From Candidatus Poribacteria bacterium (GTDB taxonomy: Bacteria; Poribacteria; WGA-4E; WGA-3G), in the NCBI GenBank assembly GCA_965262955.1, contig CBDHGE010000001.1:3730272-3794271 (forward strand): a stretch of 64,000 bases of DNA, written 5' to 3'. Shown here one piece after another: positions 26,585 through 58,009 of the stretch. Numbering within the stretch: the first letter of the stretch is position 1; each line of letters starts with the position of its first letter. Under the pieces are notes generated by a model that had not been told where the DNA came from, ran no database searches, and was given only the letters and a program-made list of their open reading frames with translations. The position numbers were made by a program, and so were the translations under genes.

Positions 26585-27307
26585 ATGAATTGCCTTGATT
26601 ATGGACTCTCTTTTATCAACTCTGTTGGCAATGGAAATGCCCCCCGCTTTTGGGTCGAATCTCGATGCCGCATCATAGATGACACAGATGGAAGTTTCAG
26701 CGATTATTACCAATGTGGTTCGTGTAAGAGTGAACACACCTTTGCGGAGAAAAATCTCTTCATAAATCCAAACTATGACTTCCTTCCTGTTTTTGGCGAA
26801 GAACATATAGCCGTATTCAGAAGACACGCATACTGCAACGATAACTACGTCGAGTACAGACCGGCGCGGGAGTATTGGGGAGGCCCGGTGTTTGATGTTC
26901 AAGAGGCATCGCGGGTCGAGGTCCTTGATAGCAACGCAGCTATTTTTGAGGCAACACGAAAATGTCTACCCATCGTAACGCAGACAGAAATATGGGATAC
27001 CCATACACATCAGCGGGCAATTATCGAGTGTCCGGTTAAAACGATGAACATGGATGAAAACGCAGACATCTACCAAGTTGATACAGGTATTGTTCTACTT
27101 CCAGATCTGTCAAAGCGATATGATCGGCAGATTGAGACGTTCAGCCTCGCTTACGTTGCTTTCAACGCCTCGCACTTTGCTGACTTCGTTATCGAACGCC
27201 CCACTGCCATCGTTAAAAATGGAGTGGAAGTTGCCCAAGTTTACCACTATTCCGAAATTCGGAGTTTAGAAGCAAAGAATACTGTGTTCTGCATCGGTGA
27301 ATTTTGA
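26585..27307 (+). CDS. Hypothetical cytoplasmic protein with CxxC motif
   Basis: 240-aa ORF with promoter and RBS; YYQCGSCKSEH. Confidence 0.7.
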   Translation: MNCLDYGLSFINSVGNGNAPRFWVESRCRIIDDTDGSFSDYYQCGSCKSEHTFAEKNLFINPNYDFLPVFGEEHIAVFRRHAYCNDNYVEYRPAREYWGGPVFDVQEASRVEVLDSNAAIFEATRKCLPIVTQTEIWDTHTHQRAIIECPVKTMNMDENADIYQVDTGIVLLPDLSKRYDRQIETFSLAYVAFNASHFADFVIERPTAIVKNGVEVAQVYHYSEIRSLEAKNTVFCIGEF

Positions 27308-45381: not shown

Positions 45382-46611
45382 CTAATTCCCGATTGCACCT
45401 GCAACTTTCACCAAATCCAGGACATTAAAAACGCCATCACCGTTGACATCTGCGGGATCCCCATCTGCCGGCACATTCTGTCCTATCCGGGATGCGACGC
45501 TCACGAGATCTAGTACGTTGACGACTCCATCGCCATTGACATCGTGCATATCCGCAGGTTTAAATGTTTCCATCAACTCGGAAGAACTATCGGCTTCATT
45601 GCTACCATCGTCATCTTGGGTTACGCTAAACACAGCCCAAACTGGACGGTGGTCACTCACGGCAAGATTCGCAGCTTCATCGTCGTTTCCGAAGTCCGTT
45701 TCATCAAACCTGTCGATCCCCGATCTATTGAGGTATTCTGTAACATAATTCTTCTGGAAAAAGATATTGTCGTAAAGACTGGAGTCTCTGATATGGGATT
45801 TTTGTGGGAATTGAAACAGGTGAGTCATCGAGGGGATCGCCATAATTTGGCTGTAAGATTCCGTGTCCGTCGGGTTGCGGTTGAAATCACCAACAAGGAG
45901 AACATCGTCCTCATCTCCGTTGGATTCCTGGACGTACTGATAAACGTTCGCCAACGCTTTAACCTCGGCTTTTCGTTCGCCAACCGTTTTACCCCAGACG
46001 ACATGGACAGCTATCACTGAAAAATTGAACGCACCCGCACGAAAGGTCGCCCAGTATGGATCACGCATGAAGTCGTCCGTACCATCCGCTGCATCTGGAT
46101 ACAATTCCCCTGGTCTGATAACACTGACAAGCTCTGGTTTGTAGAGGAAAGCATACCGCTCTTTCACACCGCGCCCAACCGCAGGACTAAACTGGTAATC
46201 ATACGCCGCGCCCATCTGTGAGAGGATTCTCTGTGTCCGTTCTAAAACCGCTTCATCGCGCAGCTCCACAATCGCGATGAAATCATAGTCAACGAGGATT
46301 TCTGCGATTGCCATTAATTCGGCATCAGTTCGACTGTTATTACTCATAATCCGGATGTTCCAAGCTGCTAACTTCAATTCAGACTGTTCAGAATCGCTGG
46401 CGGTGGTATTCTGACTTACTACTAAATCAGCATCAATTTCAGCTGGTTGCGAATCTTTTACACCATGCTTATGATATTCACCCGTCTCGCGATTATAATG
46501 TCCACCATTTGCGTCTGTTCGCCCAGGATGAGCGTCCCCAAAATCATAGGGTATAGCGAAAAAAATCAATAAAAAGGATGCTAATATCCTGAAATTAACC
46601 TTTCTATACAT
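45382..46611 (-). CDS. Secreted DNase I-like EEP nuclease with N-terminal YHYH-like motif and C-terminal dockerin-like domain
   Basis: HPGRTD..GGH...GEYH.H; WNI, ERYAFLY, GDFN, YDNI, SDH.PV; duplicated DVNGDG..NVLDL. Start at MYRK is uncertain (ORF track 46659). Confidence 0.85.
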   Translation of the reverse strand: MYRKVNFRILASFLLIFFAIPYDFGDAHPGRTDANGGHYNRETGEYHKHGVKDSQPAEIDADLVVSQNTTASDSEQSELKLAAWNIRIMSNNSRTDAELMAIAEILVDYDFIAIVELRDEAVLERTQRILSQMGAAYDYQFSPAVGRGVKERYAFLYKPELVSVIRPGELYPDAADGTDDFMRDPYWATFRAGAFNFSVIAVHVVWGKTVGERKAEVKALANVYQYVQESNGDEDDVLLVGDFNRNPTDTESYSQIMAIPSMTHLFQFPQKSHIRDSSLYDNIFFQKNYVTEYLNRSGIDRFDETDFGNDDEAANLAVSDHRPVWAVFSVTQDDDGSNEADSSSELMETFKPADMHDVNGDGVVNVLDLVSVASRIGQNVPADGDPADVNGDGVFNVLDLVKVAGAIGN

Positions 46612-46827
46612 CAAAAAGTTGCCTTCCACAAAAAATATAAAAAAATTGCTTACATACAAAAATTGTTGTCTTAAATACTCACCGTAATTAGGACATCACG
46701 ACTGAACAGTGTTTGGTGTGATGTCTTGACAGATTCCGTTCTCTTGTGAGGTCTTCTTACTGTGATTTTATCAGAAATATGCCGTTGTGTCAAAAGTGTG
46801 GTATTACAATCCAAGTTGCCACAACGA

Positions 46828-47093
46828 AAAAAAATCTGCCAGCTGGAGCAACAGCGCAACTCGGTAAAGGCAATATTTATGCTGTAGCGTATTCTCCAGA
46901 TGGCATGCATATAGCGGCTGCCAGTGCTGTTGATACTTGGCTATACCATGTAGAACATGAAGAGGTACGAATGTTTCCCGCCATTAACACGGACGCTGTT
47001 GGGAGTCTAAGTTTTTCCCCTGATCGCAAGACGCTGGCAACAGAGAATTGGTATGGCACAGTTCTCCTATGGGACATGTCCTTGCTTGACTGA
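46828..47093 (+). pseudogene. Internally deleted WD40-repeat protein remnant
   Basis: LPAGATAQLGKG, only about two WD40 blades, then GTVLLWD; no convincing start. Confidence 0.55.
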
Positions 47094-47426: not shown

Positions 47427-47668
47427 TTCCAAACCGTGCCGATCCACCTTATTTAATCTCTGTTCCCCTCTTTTCCAACTCAGCTAACCTACCTTGCAAC
47501 AGAAACACTTGTGAAAAATAATATTTATTTCCCTCTGAGTGAAATAATTTAGATTATTCTATCTTTTCGCCCACAATTGTATCTATAACAATAAGAAGGA
47601 TTCCCTTTTTTACGGTAAACTTATATTTCTGCATCGAACTTCCAATGGATATACTGTAGAGGAAAAAA

Positions 47669-48901
47669 ATGCGAAAAATATTGAGTATCTCACTTCTATT
47701 ATGTACAACATTATTGATTTCTGGTTGTGCTGCTTCATTTTTGTCAGGAAACCACCAAAAAATTCGACTCATGTTAAACCGACCCGAACAGATTCAGGTC
47801 CAAGCATCTATCGCTCCAATTACATATTCTAGTGGAGATTTCCATCTGAAATGGGAGTCACTCACAAACCTGAGTGAGGTAGAACAACAACGAGATTATC
47901 CAATGTCAGTATTTCAGGGTTTTCTCCCTAAAAGATCCGTCTCTATCGGCAAGGCATGGGAAATTGATCGTGAAGCTGCACTTCAATTGCTCAAGCAACT
48001 TGCAGAGAAGCCGCAATTTAAAATGCACATCAGTCCTGGCACTACAAAAATCAGTATCGGTAGTATCAAAACTTTCGAGATAGGTGGTGACGCAGATGGA
48101 CGTTGGGCATTGCTTCGTGCATTTAACGACGATTATGCTGAAATTCTGTTCCGGATTCATGCCGAGTTCGTCTTAGAAGATGGCTATTTTACACCCTCAC
48201 AATTCGCAGGACGTTTCATTCTTGACAGACACGCACAAGAATTAGTTTACTTTAAGATGCATGTCCCTCAAAGCACGCTTAACTTCGATGTCAATAGAAA
48301 ACACCCAAATGGGAGTGTCACAACTGCTACCGGGGTTTGTCAAATTGAAATGACCGCTGGGGGAGACGTCGCCACGGATATTACTTTCTTGGAAAAGATC
48401 TCTATGGATCAGGCGGAACTCGTACTCGCCAGACAGTTTTACAAAGCACAAGAAATTGAATGGGTACCTTTAGATAAGGCAGTAGAGAAAGCAAAATCAC
48501 TTGACCGTCCCATCCACGTCGTTTCGGCGGACGGTACCTTTATGGATGAGTCGTGCTGAGGGAGTGGGAAAACCCTGAGGGCAGTTGTCCTCTCTGATAA
48601 GAAAACAATTAAGTATTTGAATGCTAACTTTGTTAACGTCTGGGTACTCAATCGCGATCTCAAACTACATCGTGACGCTAAAGGCATTGACAGTATTTCA
48701 CCCTTGGAACGGGCGATCATTAGCGGATGGAATAAGGGATCACCTGTAGATTGCCAAGTGATTTCAAAAGACTTAAAGCTGCTTATGAGCCTACCCCTTA
48801 ACGATTTTATGAAAAAATCTGGTTTTTCGTTTTTTTATAAAGGTGGAAGTCTCTATCGGGATGCTATGAACGAGGCATTAACTGGAGCAAACCGAGAATA
48901 A
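47669..48901 (+). CDS. Selenoprotein N (SELENON)-like lipoprotein; in-frame TGA 48557..48559 predicted as selenocysteine
   Basis: Lipobox ISGC; FRIHAEF, F.P.QF.G and DESC*GSGKTLR..VL motifs; ORFs 47669..48559 and 48617..48901 share a frame with no other stop between them. Confidence 0.88.
48560..48596 (+). promoter_or_regulatory. Candidate bacterial SECIS hairpin
   Basis: Stem GAGGGC (48577-82) / GUCCUC (48587-92) with loop AGUU; 23 nt separate the UGA from the loop. Confidence 0.6.
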
Positions 48902-48982
48902 ATGATTCCGATCAGTGTTCACAAGATAGCATAACCTCGGTTATCCCATTGATGAACCCATCACCGACAAAAGGAGTCTCAA

Positions 48983-49867
48983 ATGACAAAGTCTAAGCGG
49001 TTAGTCGCTTTTCTGATCTTTTCTCTCCTATTTCTATCAGTAGCGACCCTTGTTCTATTCGTAGGAGAGGCCGGAAACTCTCACCGGAATAGATCCGGTT
49101 TATCCGTTAATCCAACTGGGCATTTAACAGTTGATTTGGAGTTTGGTACGATCAATATAGAAACCACGGATCAGGATCATATCAATATTGCATACACACA
49201 GGAATGGAAAGCAAAGTTCCGGGAACTACGACCGAAGTCTTTCGTATGGATTACTAAATTACCCTATGATTTTGAAATCACAACTGAACATGAAGAGGCA
49301 GATACCGAATCAGATGTTCGAATTGAAGGAAAGTTCAAGCGTGGACGAGAACATTGGCAAGAGGGATTGAAGTGGTACACTGTCGACGTTCGTGTGACAG
49401 TGCCGCGCCAGTATAATGTCACGCTCAAAACTGCATCTTCTGGAGATATTCATGTTGACAACTTAATGGGGGCGGTAAGCGTAGAAGTGTTGGACGGCAA
49501 CCTGCACCTTGGCGAAATCCAGGGTGAAGTGTGGGGAAAAACCTATGGGAGTGGAGATATTACACTCAACGGGTGCAAAAATCGCCTCAACCTGACAGCT
49601 GCTATGGGGAATATCCGAGCGGAAATGACAACACAACCAGAACATCCATGGGTGCTGAGCACATCCGAGAGCGGAGAGATAGATGTCACGGTCCATCCCA
49701 ATATCGCAGTTGACGTAGATGCCCAAACGCAAGGGAACATCTCAAGCGATTTTCCCATTCAACCTAACAGAAACATCGAAAATAGAATAAAGGGAATGGT
49801 TAACAGCGGTGGACCACTACTGAAATTGCGCGCTGCTGCCGGCGAAATCCGCTTGAGGAAGAAGTAG
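48983..49867 (+). CDS. DUF4097 / adhesin-like beta-strand repeat protein
   Basis: N-terminal TM; VTVPR.YNV.LKT.SGDI, repeated G.I units, GGPLLKL...GEI. Confidence 0.8.
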   Translation: MTKSKRLVAFLIFSLLFLSVATLVLFVGEAGNSHRNRSGLSVNPTGHLTVDLEFGTINIETTDQDHINIAYTQEWKAKFRELRPKSFVWITKLPYDFEITTEHEEADTESDVRIEGKFKRGREHWQEGLKWYTVDVRVTVPRQYNVTLKTASSGDIHVDNLMGAVSVEVLDGNLHLGEIQGEVWGKTYGSGDITLNGCKNRLNLTAAMGNIRAEMTTQPEHPWVLSTSESGEIDVTVHPNIAVDVDAQTQGNISSDFPIQPNRNIENRIKGMVNSGGPLLKLRAAAGEIRLRKK

Positions 49868-55382: not shown

Positions 55383-56729
55383 CTACTGTGTCACTGCCTC
55401 AATTGACGCATAAACGGTGTCCAGAAGCGTGTCTAACTCTGAAATCGGGATTTGCAATGGTGGCATCAGGACGATAGTATTGACAAGTGGTCGGAGTATC
55501 GCGCCACGGGTGAGTGCTTCTTTACAGACCCGGATACCTACCTTCTCCTCAAACGGATAAGGCGTATTGGTGTCTGGGTTTTTCATTAACTCTACGCCTG
55601 CGGCAAGTCCACATACACGTACATCACCGACATACGGGAGTTTGTGGAATGCTTGGAGTCGGTTTTTGAAGTGTTCAATGGTAGGTTGGAGTCGGGAAAG
55701 AAGATTCTCACGCTCGAAAATGGCGATGTTTTCTAATGCGACAGCACACGCTAACGGGTTACCAGTAAAGGTGTGTCCATGGAAAAAGGTCTTGAGGTCC
55801 TTATATTCGCCGAGGAAAGCATCGTAGATTTCGTCCGTAGTTAGCGTTGCGGCGAGGGGAAGGTAGCCTGCGGCGAGTCCTTTTGCTGTGCATAAGAGAT
55901 CGGGTGTGACCCCTTCATGTTCACATGCCCACATTTTGCCGGTACGCCCAAAACCGGTCATCACTTCATCAACGATGAGAAGTGTATTCCACCGTTTCGC
56001 TAATACAACAAGTTCCTTCAGGAACCCTTGAGGCGAAATAAGCATGCCACCCGCGCCCTGAATTAGCGGCTCTAAAATGATTCCGGCAATCTGCTCTGTG
56101 TGCTCAGAGAGGGCATTTTCTACTGCATTTATCCATCGAGTTTTAACCGCAGCGTCATCAGCACAGGTAGAATGATAGGTTTCGGGAGCAGACACGCGGA
56201 TCCCTTTGAAAAGGAGGGAATCAAAGGTTGTGTGGAAACTATCAATACCTCCGACACTCATAGCACCTATCGTGTCTCCGTGATACGCCTTATCAAAATG
56301 GATAAATAGTTTCCGTTGCGGTTTTCCCTTGTGTTGCCAGTACTGATACGCCATCTTTAAGGCAATTTCGACAGCGGTTGAACCGTTATCGGAATAGAAC
56401 ACCTTATTAAGCCCTACCGGCGTAATCTCTACCAATTTTTTTGCCAGTTCAATCGCGGGAATGTTGCTGTAGCCAAGTAGCGTGGTATGTGCAATCTTAT
56501 CCAGTTGTGTTTTGAGCGCGGTGTTCAACTCAGGACAATTGTGACCATGGACATTCGTCCACATAGATGCAACGCCATCAATATACCGATTTCCGGCGGT
56601 ATCAATGAGGTAACATCCTTCGCCGCGTTCAATAATCACTGGCACCTCTGTCAGCCAATCTTGCATCTGAGTAAATGGATGCCAGAGGTAACGCTTATCC
56701 CAAGCGACAAGCGTCTCATTGTCAACCAT
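55383..56729 (-). CDS. bioA: Adenosylmethionine-8-amino-7-oxononanoate aminotransferase
   Basis: WHPFTQM, SDNGSTAVEIALKMA, YHGDT, DEV.TGFGRTG, FFHGHTFTGNPLAC. Confidence 0.95.
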   Translation of the reverse strand: MVDNETLVAWDKRYLWHPFTQMQDWLTEVPVIIERGEGCYLIDTAGNRYIDGVASMWTNVHGHNCPELNTALKTQLDKIAHTTLLGYSNIPAIELAKKLVEITPVGLNKVFYSDNGSTAVEIALKMAYQYWQHKGKPQRKLFIHFDKAYHGDTIGAMSVGGIDSFHTTFDSLLFKGIRVSAPETYHSTCADDAAVKTRWINAVENALSEHTEQIAGIILEPLIQGAGGMLISPQGFLKELVVLAKRWNTLLIVDEVMTGFGRTGKMWACEHEGVTPDLLCTAKGLAAGYLPLAATLTTDEIYDAFLGEYKDLKTFFHGHTFTGNPLACAVALENIAIFERENLLSRLQPTIEHFKNRLQAFHKLPYVGDVRVCGLAAGVELMKNPDTNTPYPFEEKVGIRVCKEALTRGAILRPLVNTIVLMPPLQIPISELDTLLDTVYASIEAVTQ

Positions 56730-56749
56730 ATCTTGTATTTACAGGTTCA

Positions 56750-58009
56750 CTACCCCTTCAGTTTCGCGTAATGGATGGTCGGCTCAATTCCAAGTGCTTC
56801 GCAGCTTCCATTTTTGGCAACGACGATTGTCAGTACTTTATTTCGATAAATCGCTTGAAAATCTTCCGGCTGCCCTGAAAGTGGTAGGGTGTTTGTGAAG
56901 CCATTGGGGAATGAACTCGCGCGTCCCAAGACAGGAGCGAATCTCGGATCGTCCAACTGCGTTTGAACAGTTAAAACACTTTCAGGGGACGGGGTTTCAT
57001 CAGGCATATAGGGTGAACTGAGGTTAATCTCATAGGCGTAATCCGGCATTAGATCTGGAAGGTCATACTCTTTTTTCCCAGCGAAATTGGGCACCCATCT
57101 TGGGAATTCAATCTCAACTTCATAATGGTTTGCCATTTCTGTAACGCGATTTACCATGCCGTAGCGTCTGTAACGTTCGCGCACGTCATCCGAATAAACA
57201 GCACCAGCGGTATCTACCGATCCAGGCATTGTTGTACGCTCACCGCCCGGTGTGACAGTTATAGCAGAACGTAAGCCGAGTAGTATCGGGTAAGCGATCA
57301 ATGAGGGAACCCAACCATAGAACGCCGCACCATAACGCGGTTGTTCCGCTTCTGAACTGAGTTCATCTTTAAACCGGTAAATCCCTTCTACAATCGCGAT
57401 AACTATCCCTAAGAAGATCATCAAATTGCCTTGACTGGCGAAGAGACCGGCGTCTTGCCCGCGTATACTGATTAAAAACAGAATAAGCGGATAGAGTGTT
57501 ATGTTGATTAGACAGTTAATGCCTGTTGATACAGCTGAACTAAAGACAATCGGATTTCCTGCCATCTCCTCAAGTCGTGCTTTAAATTTCGCTGAAAAGG
57601 CACCGAGAAAAGGCTGAGAGAGCATCGTAAAAACATTATGCGGTGCTCGAAGTCTGGATTCTGGGACCTCTGGTATTTGTGCGAATTCTTCGGGAATGCC
57701 CTGTTCTTTTCCTCTCCCAGTTGTTCCCGTCTCGCCGTCTGCGCTATCCGATGTTTCGGGTTTAACGAAAGTCTCAAAAAATTTACGGTTTATCTCAATA
57801 AATGGTTGCCACTCAGCAGGCACATCGCTTTCCATTGAGATGGCGTCAACAGGACATGCCGGTTCACAGGCAGCGCAGTCGATACATTCATCAGGATTGA
57901 TATAAAGTTGATTTTCGCCTTCCGTGGTGTGTATACAGTCAACTGGGCATACATCAACGCATGCGGTATCCATTACGTCAACGCACGGTTCACAAATTAT
58001 GTAAGCCAT
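56750..58009 (-). CDS. Dicluster ferredoxin fused to a membrane domain and a C-terminal Hsp20-like domain
   Basis: N-terminal FdxA-like CVDVCPVDCI / CIDCAACEPACP; about 3 TM helices; C-terminal AIYRNKVLTIVVAK. Confidence 0.75.
   Translation of the reverse strand: MAYIICEPCVDVMDTACVDVCPVDCIHTTEGENQLYINPDECIDCAACEPACPVDAISMESDVPAEWQPFIEINRKFFETFVKPETSDSADGETGTTGRGKEQGIPEEFAQIPEVPESRLRAPHNVFTMLSQPFLGAFSAKFKARLEEMAGNPIVFSSAVSTGINCLINITLYPLILFLISIRGQDAGLFASQGNLMIFLGIVIAIVEGIYRFKDELSSEAEQPRYGAAFYGWVPSLIAYPILLGLRSAITVTPGGERTTMPGSVDTAGAVYSDDVRERYRRYGMVNRVTEMANHYEVEIEFPRWVPNFAGKKEYDLPDLMPDYAYEINLSSPYMPDETPSPESVLTVQTQLDDPRFAPVLGRASSFPNGFTNTLPLSGQPEDFQAIYRNKVLTIVVAKNGSCEALGIEPTIHYAKLKG

Follow-up and report, generated by a model that had tools for sequence, protein, structure and literature searches.

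A probable selenocysteine-containing homolog of animal selenoprotein N in Candidatus Poribacteria

Within the window, by which we mean the whole 64,000-nucleotide stretch of DNA from an uncultured Candidatus Poribacteria bacterium analysed here, positions 47669..48901 of the forward strand very probably constitute one gene, encoding an exported 410-residue lipoprotein that is homologous to animal selenoprotein N (SELENON/SEPN1), carries selenocysteine (Sec) at U297 and would have a redox role in the cell envelope. A conserved UGA codon, purifying selection on the frame beyond it, natural cysteine forms, a hairpin, the sel genes and homology to SELENON together lead to this identification. A sequence-only reading had proposed a true selenoprotein of a family usually treated as animal-specific, and the conservation, the Sec machinery and the homology described below all argue in its favour.

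The layout of the gene is summarised in Table 1. An open reading frame of 296 aa (47669..48559, forward strand) ends at the TGA, and the frame beyond stays open until the TAA. The two reading frames first noticed do therefore lie in one frame with a TGA between them, the second of them (48617..48901) being merely what follows the first TTG of that frame. Read through, the product is ...DESC-U-GSGKTLRAVVLSDKKTIKYLNANFVNVWVLN..., as originally written out, and both of the segments singled out in it, FRIHAEF and FTPSQFAG, are present. Gene callers take residues 1-296 for a hypothetical protein of 296 aa, and the C-terminal part contains the conserved motifs GSGKxLRA…NFVNxW…SPVDC.

Table 1. Coordinates of the SELENON-like gene and associated features in the window
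Feature	Position	Strand	Detail
Shine-Dalgarno-like GAGGA (putative)	47659..47663	+	ATG 5 nt further on; read off the sequence
N-terminal part of SELENON-like gene	47669..48556	+	residues 1-296, the last being Cys296
Predicted lipoprotein signal peptide with lipobox …L-I-S-G-C	47669..47728	+	Cys20 codon 47726-47728
Predicted Sec codon (in-frame TGA), U297 in SCUG motif	48557..48559	+	aligned with a TGA in all homologous loci examined
C-terminal part of SELENON-like gene	48560..48901	+	residues 298-410 and TAA stop 48899-48901
Candidate bacterial SECIS-type hairpin	48577..48592	+	6-bp stem GAGGGC/GUCCUC, 4-nt loop AGUU
Membrane-anchored DUF4097 ('toastrack') protein gene	48983..49867	+	Pfam DUF4097, E 1.3e-11

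Relationship to animal SELENON

A profile of the Poribacteria proteins, searched against a library of 1.84 billion proteins in which names were obtained via cluster members, matched a Potamilus 'EF-hand domain-containing protein' (E 3.0e-31), a Nucella protein (E 4.6e-31), a cluster holding 'SEPN1 [Acanthosepion pharaonis]' (E 7.7e-29) and a Nematostella protein (E 8.4e-29). Compared directly by BLASTP, the read-through protein and the Nematostella SELENON-type protein align over query residues 78-382 (94 bits, E 2e-25), reaching about 85 residues beyond the Sec position. The identity between bacterial and animal proteins is about 26 % in pairwise comparison.

Such homology could have arisen by recent gain of the gene from the sponge host, which would make it a eukaryote-like symbiont protein with no ancient bacterial family behind it; we consider this very improbable. 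SelN is present in sponges (Table 1 of PMC3473315), in which Poribacteria live as symbionts, and several of the sequencing runs that have words in common with the stretch carry the label sponge metagenome; no RNA run is among those listed. However, in a FastTree phylogeny of 137 rows, which is unrooted, includes no sponge sequence and has taxon names for few of its rows, the rows from Poribacteria come together in a single clade (98). This sits inside a larger clade (99) of 73 rows that also holds Cys forms with bacterial signal peptides and fusions to extracytoplasmic function (ECF) sigma factors. All 12 rows of animal type group apart in a clade of their own (100), and the rows closest to them bear bacterial lipoprotein signals; for relatives outside Poribacteria, the label 'bacterial' refers to signal peptides, lipoboxes and sigma-factor fusions and not to taxon names. 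The Poribacteria genes, moreover, carry a hairpin within the coding region and no 3'-UTR SECIS.

A real bacterial selenoprotein might also resemble SELENON by convergence, or only at the SCUG motif, being in truth an unrelated thioredoxin-fold protein. The low pairwise identity would fit this, as would the lack of any Pfam or NCBIfam model matching both the bacterial family and the SELENON core. Against it, the profile match and an hhalign comparison of bacterial with animal proteins (243 columns, probability 100 %, E 2.1e-43) fall nearly entirely in the sequence before the motif, the blocks FR[IM]HAEF and FTP[SA]QF are common to both groups, and the pairwise alignment continues well past the Sec. 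Similarity to SELENON is significant before as well as after the TGA, and we regard convergence as very unlikely.

The resemblance to animal SELENON extends to a core of some 330 residues, whose homology covers the sequence before and after the Sec, and to the motif itself, S-C-U-G followed by GSG[KR]xLR (the human motif as it appears in the available text of PMC12839072). Both proteins would occupy an extracytoplasmic oxidising compartment, the ER lumen in animals and, as predicted from the signal peptide, the periplasmic side in the bacterium. Both genes have a coding-sequence RNA hairpin soon after the UGA, named 'SRE' in SELENON (PMC12839072, available text). Of the features of the SELENON family, the homologous luminal core and the Sec in S-C-U-G are found. 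The EF-hand that precedes the core in animals and the ER membrane anchor of type II are missing, which also speaks for convergence. Weak EF-hand matches occur in the animal proteins P0347 and P0357, whereas none occurs in the bacterial protein, which begins with a lipoprotein signal peptide in place of the anchor. Animal SELENON further differs in depending on a 3'-UTR SECIS rather than a SelB-type hairpin inside the reading frame, and in being single-copy, whereas this genome has eight copies and its relatives up to 13 family matches each.

Decoding of the in-frame UGA

The genome, which is 96 % complete, contains the whole Sec machinery, the genes for which had been named as something to look for. 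Profile matches to selA (596 bits), selB (357 bits) and selD (368 bits) and a tRNA-Sec (77.7 bits, anticodon TCA) all exceed their curated cut-offs. The tRNA-Sec starts 40 nt past the end of the selB match and is likewise called by ARAGORN as tRNA-SeC with anticodon TCA; selD itself has an in-frame TGA.

Matches to the family occur in 131 of 176 Poribacteria genomes, concentrated in three families (109 of 111, 10 of 11 and 11 of 29 genomes) with none in the 24 genomes of eight others. Among the matches listed, 150 of 150 have the in-frame TGA (656 further matches exist in Poribacteria genomes), and all 35 locus segments past a filter that would also have admitted C, G or W at the Sec site have U, encoded by TGA, in [SA]CUG. 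All 41 locus sequences keep the TGA while synonymous sites nearby vary, and its recurrence at one column in every homologous locus examined goes far beyond chance. The profile search of the protein library returned 427 representatives at E<=1e-3, and 118 of the best 150 of these stop exactly at a ...D[DE][EQ][SA]C motif, with Cys before the TGA, which indicates that gene callers stopped there.

This habit of annotation is also what might be expected if the TGA were a real stop, the 296-aa protein being whole or a pseudogene and the remainder being non-coding or a small gene from TTG 48617. Apart from the annotated 296-aa protein, many database entries of 249-303 aa are cut at the same Cys, and the genome uses TGA routinely as a stop. 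Yet the frame downstream of the TGA is under purifying selection at the protein level. Differences from five orthologs at codon positions 1/2/3 number 12/8/33, 6/3/23 (counted over 88 codons), 7/3/27, 8/5/22 and 8/4/23, and only 8-16 % of residues are changed downstream as against 21-27 % upstream. There is no conserved start codon after the TGA from which a separate small gene could be translated.

The same column is read through in animal SELENON and in cysteine forms of the family. In the Sec/Cys alignment, a check that had been asked for, Cys stands at the U column in P0238, P0240, P0244 and P0260 (SCCG, within SCCGSGK), and P0265 has ACCA; P0238, which is 31 % identical over an alignment of 395 residues, has its C facing the U. 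Taken with the Sec machinery, these observations leave a real stop with very little probability as an account of the locus, although UGA termination probably competes with Sec insertion and a short product may exist when selenium is scarce.

Nor is the TGA an error of assembly, a possibility that the earlier reading had itself raised. It recurs across hundreds of independent assemblies, and a 706-nt contig from a different study spans 48423-48950 with one letter different. Among the 40 contig rows listed (319 more were matched) there is no change at 48557-59; the pile-up of contigs at 48520-48611 reflects a segment common to contigs from many paralogs.

Downstream of the UGA, the hairpin begins its stem 17 nt past the codon (+21..+36) and its apical loop 23 nt past it. 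All 40 homologs have it, 38 of them with standard pairs at all six positions and two with a 6-bp stem whose register is shifted by 2 nt, and it is folded in most of them; the apical loop reads AGUU in 20 and AGGU in the other 20. Codons +6..+9 and +11 have a third-position entropy of 0-0.17, where conserved degenerate codons elsewhere have 0.9-1.9, and synonymous choices within the hairpin are frozen (Arg AGG in 40/41, Ala GCA in 40/40, Leu CTC in 41/41). Compensatory covariation is thin, since most stem pairs never vary. The window sequence folded singly over the post-UGA region does no better than shuffles (z -0.88), and Rfam has no SECIS-type family matching the hairpin; support for it thus comes from conservation across homologs and not from single-sequence folding. 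Models of bacterial SECIS elements comprise a stem-loop shortly past the UGA with a G in the apical loop, and both the spacing and the G are found here. Its position, where SelB-dependent elements of bacteria lie, suggests a candidate SECIS.

That TGA might be read throughout as Trp or Gly under a variant code (NCBI tables 4 and 25), with no site-specific recoding, has next to no plausibility: W does occur at this position in the database entries P0098 and P0099, and G in P0025 and others, but of the 2328 stop-to-stop frames in the genome that are 300 codons or longer, 437 end in TGA, which is thus an ordinary stop, there is a dedicated tRNA-Sec alongside selA, selB and selD, the W forms come from short contigs and were probably called with table 4, and the G forms examined are genuine GGA or GGC codons of other species. 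The TGA stops that had been cited in support of site-specific recoding, at 27307, 28632 and 62648, are indeed TGA in the sequence, and the genome-wide count bears out the same conclusion. In one paralog group, certain species have Gly in place of Sec, encoded by GGA or GGC in the two no-stop orthologs sequenced, which implies that the selenol is dispensable for at least some family members. Considering all of these comparisons, the TGA at 48557-59 is very probably a selenocysteine codon and not a stop, an assembly error or the product of a variant code.

Envelope location, redox centre and gene neighbourhood

The N-terminus carries a segment ending in LLISGC, which by its consensus we take to be a lipobox with Cys20. 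Orthologs retain a …[FP][GS]GC lipobox, lipoprotein signals also open the more distant bacterial relatives, and the conserved core begins about 30 residues past the lipobox. A Pfam scan of the read-through protein gives no EF-hand family at E<=1. The lipobox and the lack of an EF-hand, both of which had been read from the sequence at the outset, are thus upheld, and the protein is predicted to be an exported lipoprotein. The ER lumen, where animal SELENON resides, is topologically equivalent to the periplasmic side.

Searches of the read-through protein against Pfam, NCBIfam (including its selenoprotein models) and PDB sequences returned nothing significant. Thioredox_DsbH matches weakly at residues 259-326 (E 0.14); it appears at E<=1 in 5 of 22 relatives, the best at 0.0028, all under the Pfam threshold. 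For a thioredoxin-like fold around the Sec, a trait of the SELENON family, the sequence thus offers sub-threshold matches and no PDB relative. Residues 285-410 used alone as a query returned no homologs despite the known full-length relatives, a result to which we give no weight.

The C-terminal G-C-U-G of mammalian thioredoxin reductase offers one analogue of the SCUG motif, an adjacent Cys-Sec pair followed by Gly, from which a selenenylsulfide/selenolthiol couple would be expected; the comparison is drawn in the SelN literature (PMC12839072, available text). The two proteins have no sequence or domain relation, and the motif lies at the flexible C-terminus of a flavoenzyme in one and internally, after a beta-strand-like PIHVVS, in the other. 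In thioredoxin-fold proteins a CxxC is placed after such a strand, and known bacterial selenoproteins include Sec-containing DsbA-like and peroxiredoxin-like examples. Exported thioredoxin-fold oxidoreductases of bacteria (DsbA/DsbG-type, Thioredox_DsbH/DUF255) are a second analogue, as exported redox proteins that may share a reactive chalcogen pair at a helix start. They differ in having CxxC or CxxU where the SELENON-like motif is C-U, and they have no counterpart of its conserved N-terminal domain of about 250 residues.

In animals, SELENON is concerned with redox regulation of SERCA and ER calcium sensing (PMC12839072, PMC7474598), and the Sec in SCUG is the catalytic redox site of human SelN in the ER lumen (PMC12839072), according to the available text of these papers. 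We propose that the bacterial protein would be made by Sec-dependent translation, then exported and lipid-anchored on the periplasmic side, where its Cys296-Sec297 pair might alternate between selenol/thiol and selenenylsulfide states in the manner of the thioredoxin reductase GCUG centre. So placed, it could act on oxidised thiols of the envelope, by reducing or by sensing them, in parallel to the part that animal SELENON plays in the ER lumen. Its catalytic mechanism, substrate and electron donor can be suggested by such analogies. To our knowledge, bacteria provide no SERCA or ER context.

The sequence-only reading had noted one gene; the family is large, diverse and multi-copy, with an expansion throughout Poribacteria. 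In this genome five of the eight SELENON-like copies are clustered round an ECF sigma factor gene, which lies within the cluster. Among the relatives, P0240 is a sigma70_r2/r4 fusion, P0176 has ECF sigma Pfam domains, and the N-terminus of P0274 looks sigma-factor-like by eye. These links of some relatives to ECF sigma factors, by adjacency or by fusion, are a hint that the family may serve in redox sensing or in signalling.

A wider scenario, which we offer as a speculation that is more doubtful than probable, would derive the SELENON core from an exported bacterial selenoprotein family. An ancient transfer from a bacterium to the animal stem could have been followed by gain of the EF-hand and membrane anchor, leaving the 'SRE' that follows the UGA in SELENON mRNA as a relic of a bacterial in-frame SECIS. 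The Poribacteria copies, some of them wired to ECF sigma factors, would then form a periplasmic redox battery of selenol-based sensors or repair enzymes, perhaps acting at the interface between symbiont and sponge.

SelN has been counted with the selenoproteins that seem restricted to animals (PMC2375036) and placed within a metazoan accretion of ER calcium components (PMC7016017), in the accessible text of both papers. The initial suggestion that SelN-like sequences of Poribacteria may have been mentioned before found no support: the main texts of the openly searchable literature yielded no report of a bacterial or Poribacteria selenoprotein N, and term searches found no SelenoN in a 2022 review (PMC9312934) or in the main text of a 2026 review of prokaryotic selenoproteomes (PMC13188914). 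A bacterial SCUG family removes the claim that SelN is animal-specific, and bacterial selenoproteomes gain a major unannotated family whose members gene callers split at the TGA. The family also suggests that a phylum dominant among sponge symbionts makes heavy use of selenium in its envelope. Small, soluble orthologs free of the EF-hand, together with the natural Cys forms, provide material for the structure and enzymology of the SELENON core; a 2020 paper states, in its available text, that the SELENON 3D structure had not been solved (PMC7474598), and sequence searches of the PDB found no relative of the bacterial protein. The practical interest is increased by SELENON being a human disease gene, responsible for SEPN1-related myopathies.

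The gene neighbourhood in the window includes no obvious redox partner for the SELENON-like gene. The DUF4097 gene that follows it is found downstream in four of five distinct same-genus ortholog genomes, at 56-76 % identity; the flanking sequence retrieved for the fifth does not contain it, and the three loci of family f2 lack it. The 82-nt spacer before it has no terminator-like site on the forward strand, and the two genes are possibly co-transcribed. Genes on the opposite strand of the window encode a sigma-54 regulator, a histidine kinase, an FGGY kinase and a nuclease with a dockerin.

A single frame interrupted by UGA

Two open reading frames that a sequence-only reading had joined into one gene do share a single frame, and are split solely at the TGA at 48557-48559. 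The frame opens at ATG 47669 and, beyond that codon, remains open up to TAA 48899-48901, the apparent start of the second ORF at 48617 being simply the first TTG there. When the TGA is read through, the product has 410 residues, with position 297 lying within …PIHVVSADGTFMDESC-U-GSGKTLRAVVLSDKK…. Its first residues read as a lipoprotein signal (…LLISGC, Cys20), as had been proposed from the lipobox, and Pfam likewise found no EF-hand in the read-through protein. Pfam returned no significant family for it (the sole match was Thioredox_DsbH, E 0.14, residues 259-326), and searches of NCBIfam and PDB sequences gave no matches.

That the TGA might be an assembly error is refuted by a public contig of 706 nt, from another study and under another organism label, that agrees with 48423-48950 at all but one letter; the TGA is also bridged by contigs that diverge more and come from sponge-metagenome-labelled runs. 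The code is not a variant one, since TGA terminates 437 of 2328 long frames genome-wide. The source genome (5.10 Mb in 3 contigs, 96 % complete) was searched for the Sec machinery, and selA (596 bits), selB (357 bits), selD (368 bits) and tRNA-Sec (77.7 bits, anticodon TCA) were all found, the last of these starting 40 nt past the end of the selB match. selD has one in-frame TGA of its own, and is itself a selenoprotein.

When 5.8 billion proteins were searched by shared words, 316 relatives of the read-through protein emerged, and for most of the 120 listed among these the query coverage is just 65-72 %. All six short relatives that were fetched end at …[EQ][SA]C, and gene callers therefore broke off at this one site. 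In a species-genome collection the in-frame TGA recurs on three Poribacteria chromosomes, followed each time by a near-identical downstream protein. Phylum-wide, matches occur in 131 of 176 Poribacteria genomes, at up to 13 per genome; by family they are found in 109/111 (f1), 10/11 (f2) and 11/29 (f3) genomes, and in 0/24 genomes of the remaining eight families. An in-frame TGA is present in all of the 150 matches listed (a further 656 lie beyond these), and U (TGA) stands within [SA]CUG in 35 of 35 fetched-locus segments passing a filter that also let through C, G or W at the Sec site. Compared with five orthologs, the window gene differs 3' of the TGA mainly at third codon positions (in one ortholog, 6, 3 and 23 differences at codon positions 1, 2 and 3 over 88 codons), and the proportion of residues changed is 8-16 % downstream of the TGA and 21-27 % upstream. 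The third-position bias and the conserved TGA argue that the downstream frame is translated and under purifying selection. A fourth contig, labelled as a Flavobacteriales MAG (locus L003), holds a copy that shares 75 % identity with the window gene and is frameshifted ~95 codons into the fetched stretch; either the copy is a pseudogene or the contig belongs to Poribacteria and was binned in the wrong genome.

Positions of the selenoprotein N (SelN)-like genes and associated features (G000, source genome; C1 to C3, its contigs)
Feature	Position	Strand	Remarks
SelN-like gene, window copy	window 47669..48901	+	
GAGGA	5 nt upstream of ATG 47669	+	precedes lipoprotein signal
SECIS-like hairpin	window 48577-48592	+	17 nt after UGA; stem GAGGGC/GUCCUC, loop AGUU
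DUF4097 'toastrack' membrane protein gene	82 nt after window SelN-like gene		
SelN-like gene, single copy	C1:~1,617,400-1,619,400		
SelN-like gene, single copy	C2:~56,700-57,900		
SelN-like genes, five-copy cluster	C1:~911,800-921,300 (locus L061 814-10310)		one in-frame TGA per copy
ECF sigma factor gene	between fourth and fifth cluster copy		441 aa; Sigma70_r2, Sigma70_r4, Sigma70_ECF; long C-terminal extension
selD region	G000:C3:496891-497814		
selB/tRNA-Sec region	G000:C1:757454-759481		

Relationship to animal selenoprotein N

A profile running from residue 35 to just beyond the Sec motif, for which 18 loci (orthologs and paralogs) were used and the window protein left out, was scored against 1.84 billion cluster representatives and produced 427 matches at E<=1e-3, of which 307 reach <=1e-10 and 126 reach <=1e-30. 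Four are animal proteins: an 'EF-hand domain-containing protein' of Potamilus streckersoni (E 3.0e-31), a Nucella lapillus protein (E 4.6e-31), a cluster holding 'SEPN1 [Acanthosepion pharaonis]' (E 7.7e-29) and an 'EF-hand domain-containing protein' of Nematostella vectensis (E 8.4e-29). The three fetched models reaching the Sec site (one from Nucella, one from Potamilus, and P0357, an unnamed protein that falls with these two in the tree) end at …LWG[AT]LDDQSC and are truncated at their own Sec codon. The Nematostella gene model is garbled at Sec and includes the downstream exon, so that its alignment crosses the Sec site, with GSGKTLRAVVL…NFVNVW in the window protein opposite GSGRTLREGPL…NYVNCW. 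BLASTP against this entry (94 bits, E 2e-25, 26 % identity, query 78-382) upholds the proposed similarity to SELENON, and a profile-profile comparison of 22 Poribacteria with 12 animal-clade sequences gave a probability of 100 % (E 2.1e-43, 243 columns). A 2026 review places the Sec of human SelN within an SCUG motif and likens this to the GCUG of thioredoxin reductase (PMC12839072).

Judged by these sequence comparisons, the homology of the window protein to SELENON is firm. Animal SELENON has an EF-hand and a type II anchor, however, and both are absent from the bacterial protein; for this reason the gene is a SELENON homolog and a domain-architecture variant, and is not filed as an ortholog with the same regulation. 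The claim of a hidden bacterial selenoprotein N homolog is real and well supported, as are a new EF-hand-less, lipoprotein variant of the family and its massive expansion in Poribacteria. A 2007 survey states that SelN appears animal-specific (PMC2375036), a 2020 analysis counts its EF-hand as one of the ER calcium components accreted in metazoans (PMC7016017), and in a 2026 review on the selenoproteomes of prokaryotes a term search of the main text found no mention of SelenoN (PMC13188914). NCBIfam and Pfam contain no model covering the family, and no report of a bacterial SELENON homolog was found in the searchable literature; because supplements, subscription journals and InterPro/PANTHER lay outside this search, we put the chance of some prior automatic or passing mention at roughly one-third.

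The tree (FastTree only, unrooted, 137 rows, most without a taxon name and none from sponges) places the Poribacteria rows in one clade (support 98), inside a 73-row clade (99) that they share with Cys forms, and the 12 animal-type rows in a separate clade (100). Rows grouping nearest the animals, at a weak support of 83, begin with bacterial lipoprotein signals. A recent transfer of the gene from sponge to symbiont is very improbable given the separate animal clade and these signals. A bacterial origin of the SELENON core would fit this tree, which, being unrooted and lacking sponge rows, sets no direction for any transfer.

The Sec site and its downstream hairpin

Among the best 150 of the 427 profile matches, 118 terminate precisely on the Cys that precedes the Sec column. 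Full-length Cys forms also occur, with SCCG in P0238, P0240, P0244 and P0260 and ACCA in P0265; P0238 and the window protein share 31 % identity across 395 aligned residues, C opposite U, the Sec/Cys alignment that the sequence-only reading had proposed to check. Within one Poribacteria paralog group the 21 closest matches divide into 12 that keep the TGA and nine with no stop, and DNA from two of the no-stop orthologs has GGA or GGC as real codons at the Sec site, where Sec has therefore been replaced by Gly. The group consists of orthologs of the database match P0031, which have a Gly codon (GGC/GGA; loci L057, L059) or TGA (L058, L060) at this site; in the no-stop orthologs the following residue changes from G to A, and the downstream hairpin sequence is still present.

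By the spacing and loop-G criteria of published models, the hairpin fits the position of a bacterial SECIS. All six stem pairs are standard in 38 of 40 distinct homologous sequences, and the remaining two have an equivalent 6-bp stem displaced by two bases; AGUU and AGGU loops occur in 20 sequences each. The hairpin codons are synonymously frozen (Arg AGG in 40/41, Ala GCA in 40/40, Leu CTC in 41/41), with a third-position entropy of 0-0.17 compared with 1.3-1.6 at nearby invariant Gly, Pro and Ile codons. Such freezing is characteristic of an RNA element superimposed on a coding region. Most pairs are invariant across homologs and compensatory covariation is thin; a single-sequence fold of the post-UGA region is unremarkable, and an Rfam search gave no family matching the hairpin. 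In four public runs, of which two carry a sponge metagenome label, summed contig depth rises 10- to 40-fold at window 48520-48611; this stretch of ~90 nt, containing the TGA and the hairpin, is common at nucleotide level to contigs of many paralogs.

Possible function, paralogs and neighbouring genes

At the level of sequence the gene is one ORF whose UGA is conserved, with a SECIS-like hairpin, the full Sec machinery in the genome, variants carrying Cys or Gly, and a predicted export signal. In the mechanism that we propose, SelB·GTP·Sec-tRNA-Sec would bind the hairpin and decode the UGA, and the protein would be exported and lipid-modified at Cys20. Cys296 and Sec297 could then form a reversible selenenylsulfide, a pair that may reduce, or report on, oxidised thiols of envelope proteins. 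Such a role would resemble what has been proposed for SELENON at the luminal cysteines of SERCA.

The source genome holds eight copies of the family, and two of the five in the cluster have SCUA in place of SCUG. P0240 is a fusion of sigma70_r2/r4, a transmembrane segment and a SelN-like domain in Cys form, P0176 has ECF sigma domains, and the N-terminus of P0274 is, by eye, sigma-factor-like; these ECF sigma-70/SelN-like fusions come in Cys and Sec forms. The fusion pattern suggests that the SelN-like domain can act as an extracytoplasmic sensor. Judging from the ECF sigma associations, some paralogs at least may feed into a transcriptional response to envelope stress. Beside the window copy there is no ECF sigma factor gene. 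No terminator-like site was found in the spacer between it and the DUF4097 gene, which is syntenic in four of five distinct same-genus ortholog genomes.

An insertion of ~17 residues (…ISPGT.K…IGG…; window 47990-48100, residues ~108-145) occurs in the window's ortholog group and is absent from the other Poribacteria paralogs (columns 100-118 of alignment A3). Upstream, window 45382-46659 (-) encodes a secreted protein of the endonuclease/exonuclease/phosphatase family that carries a dockerin domain at its C-terminus, and between this and the SelN-like gene lies a 115-aa ORF with a WD40-repeat match (46746-47093, +), possibly a gene fragment.
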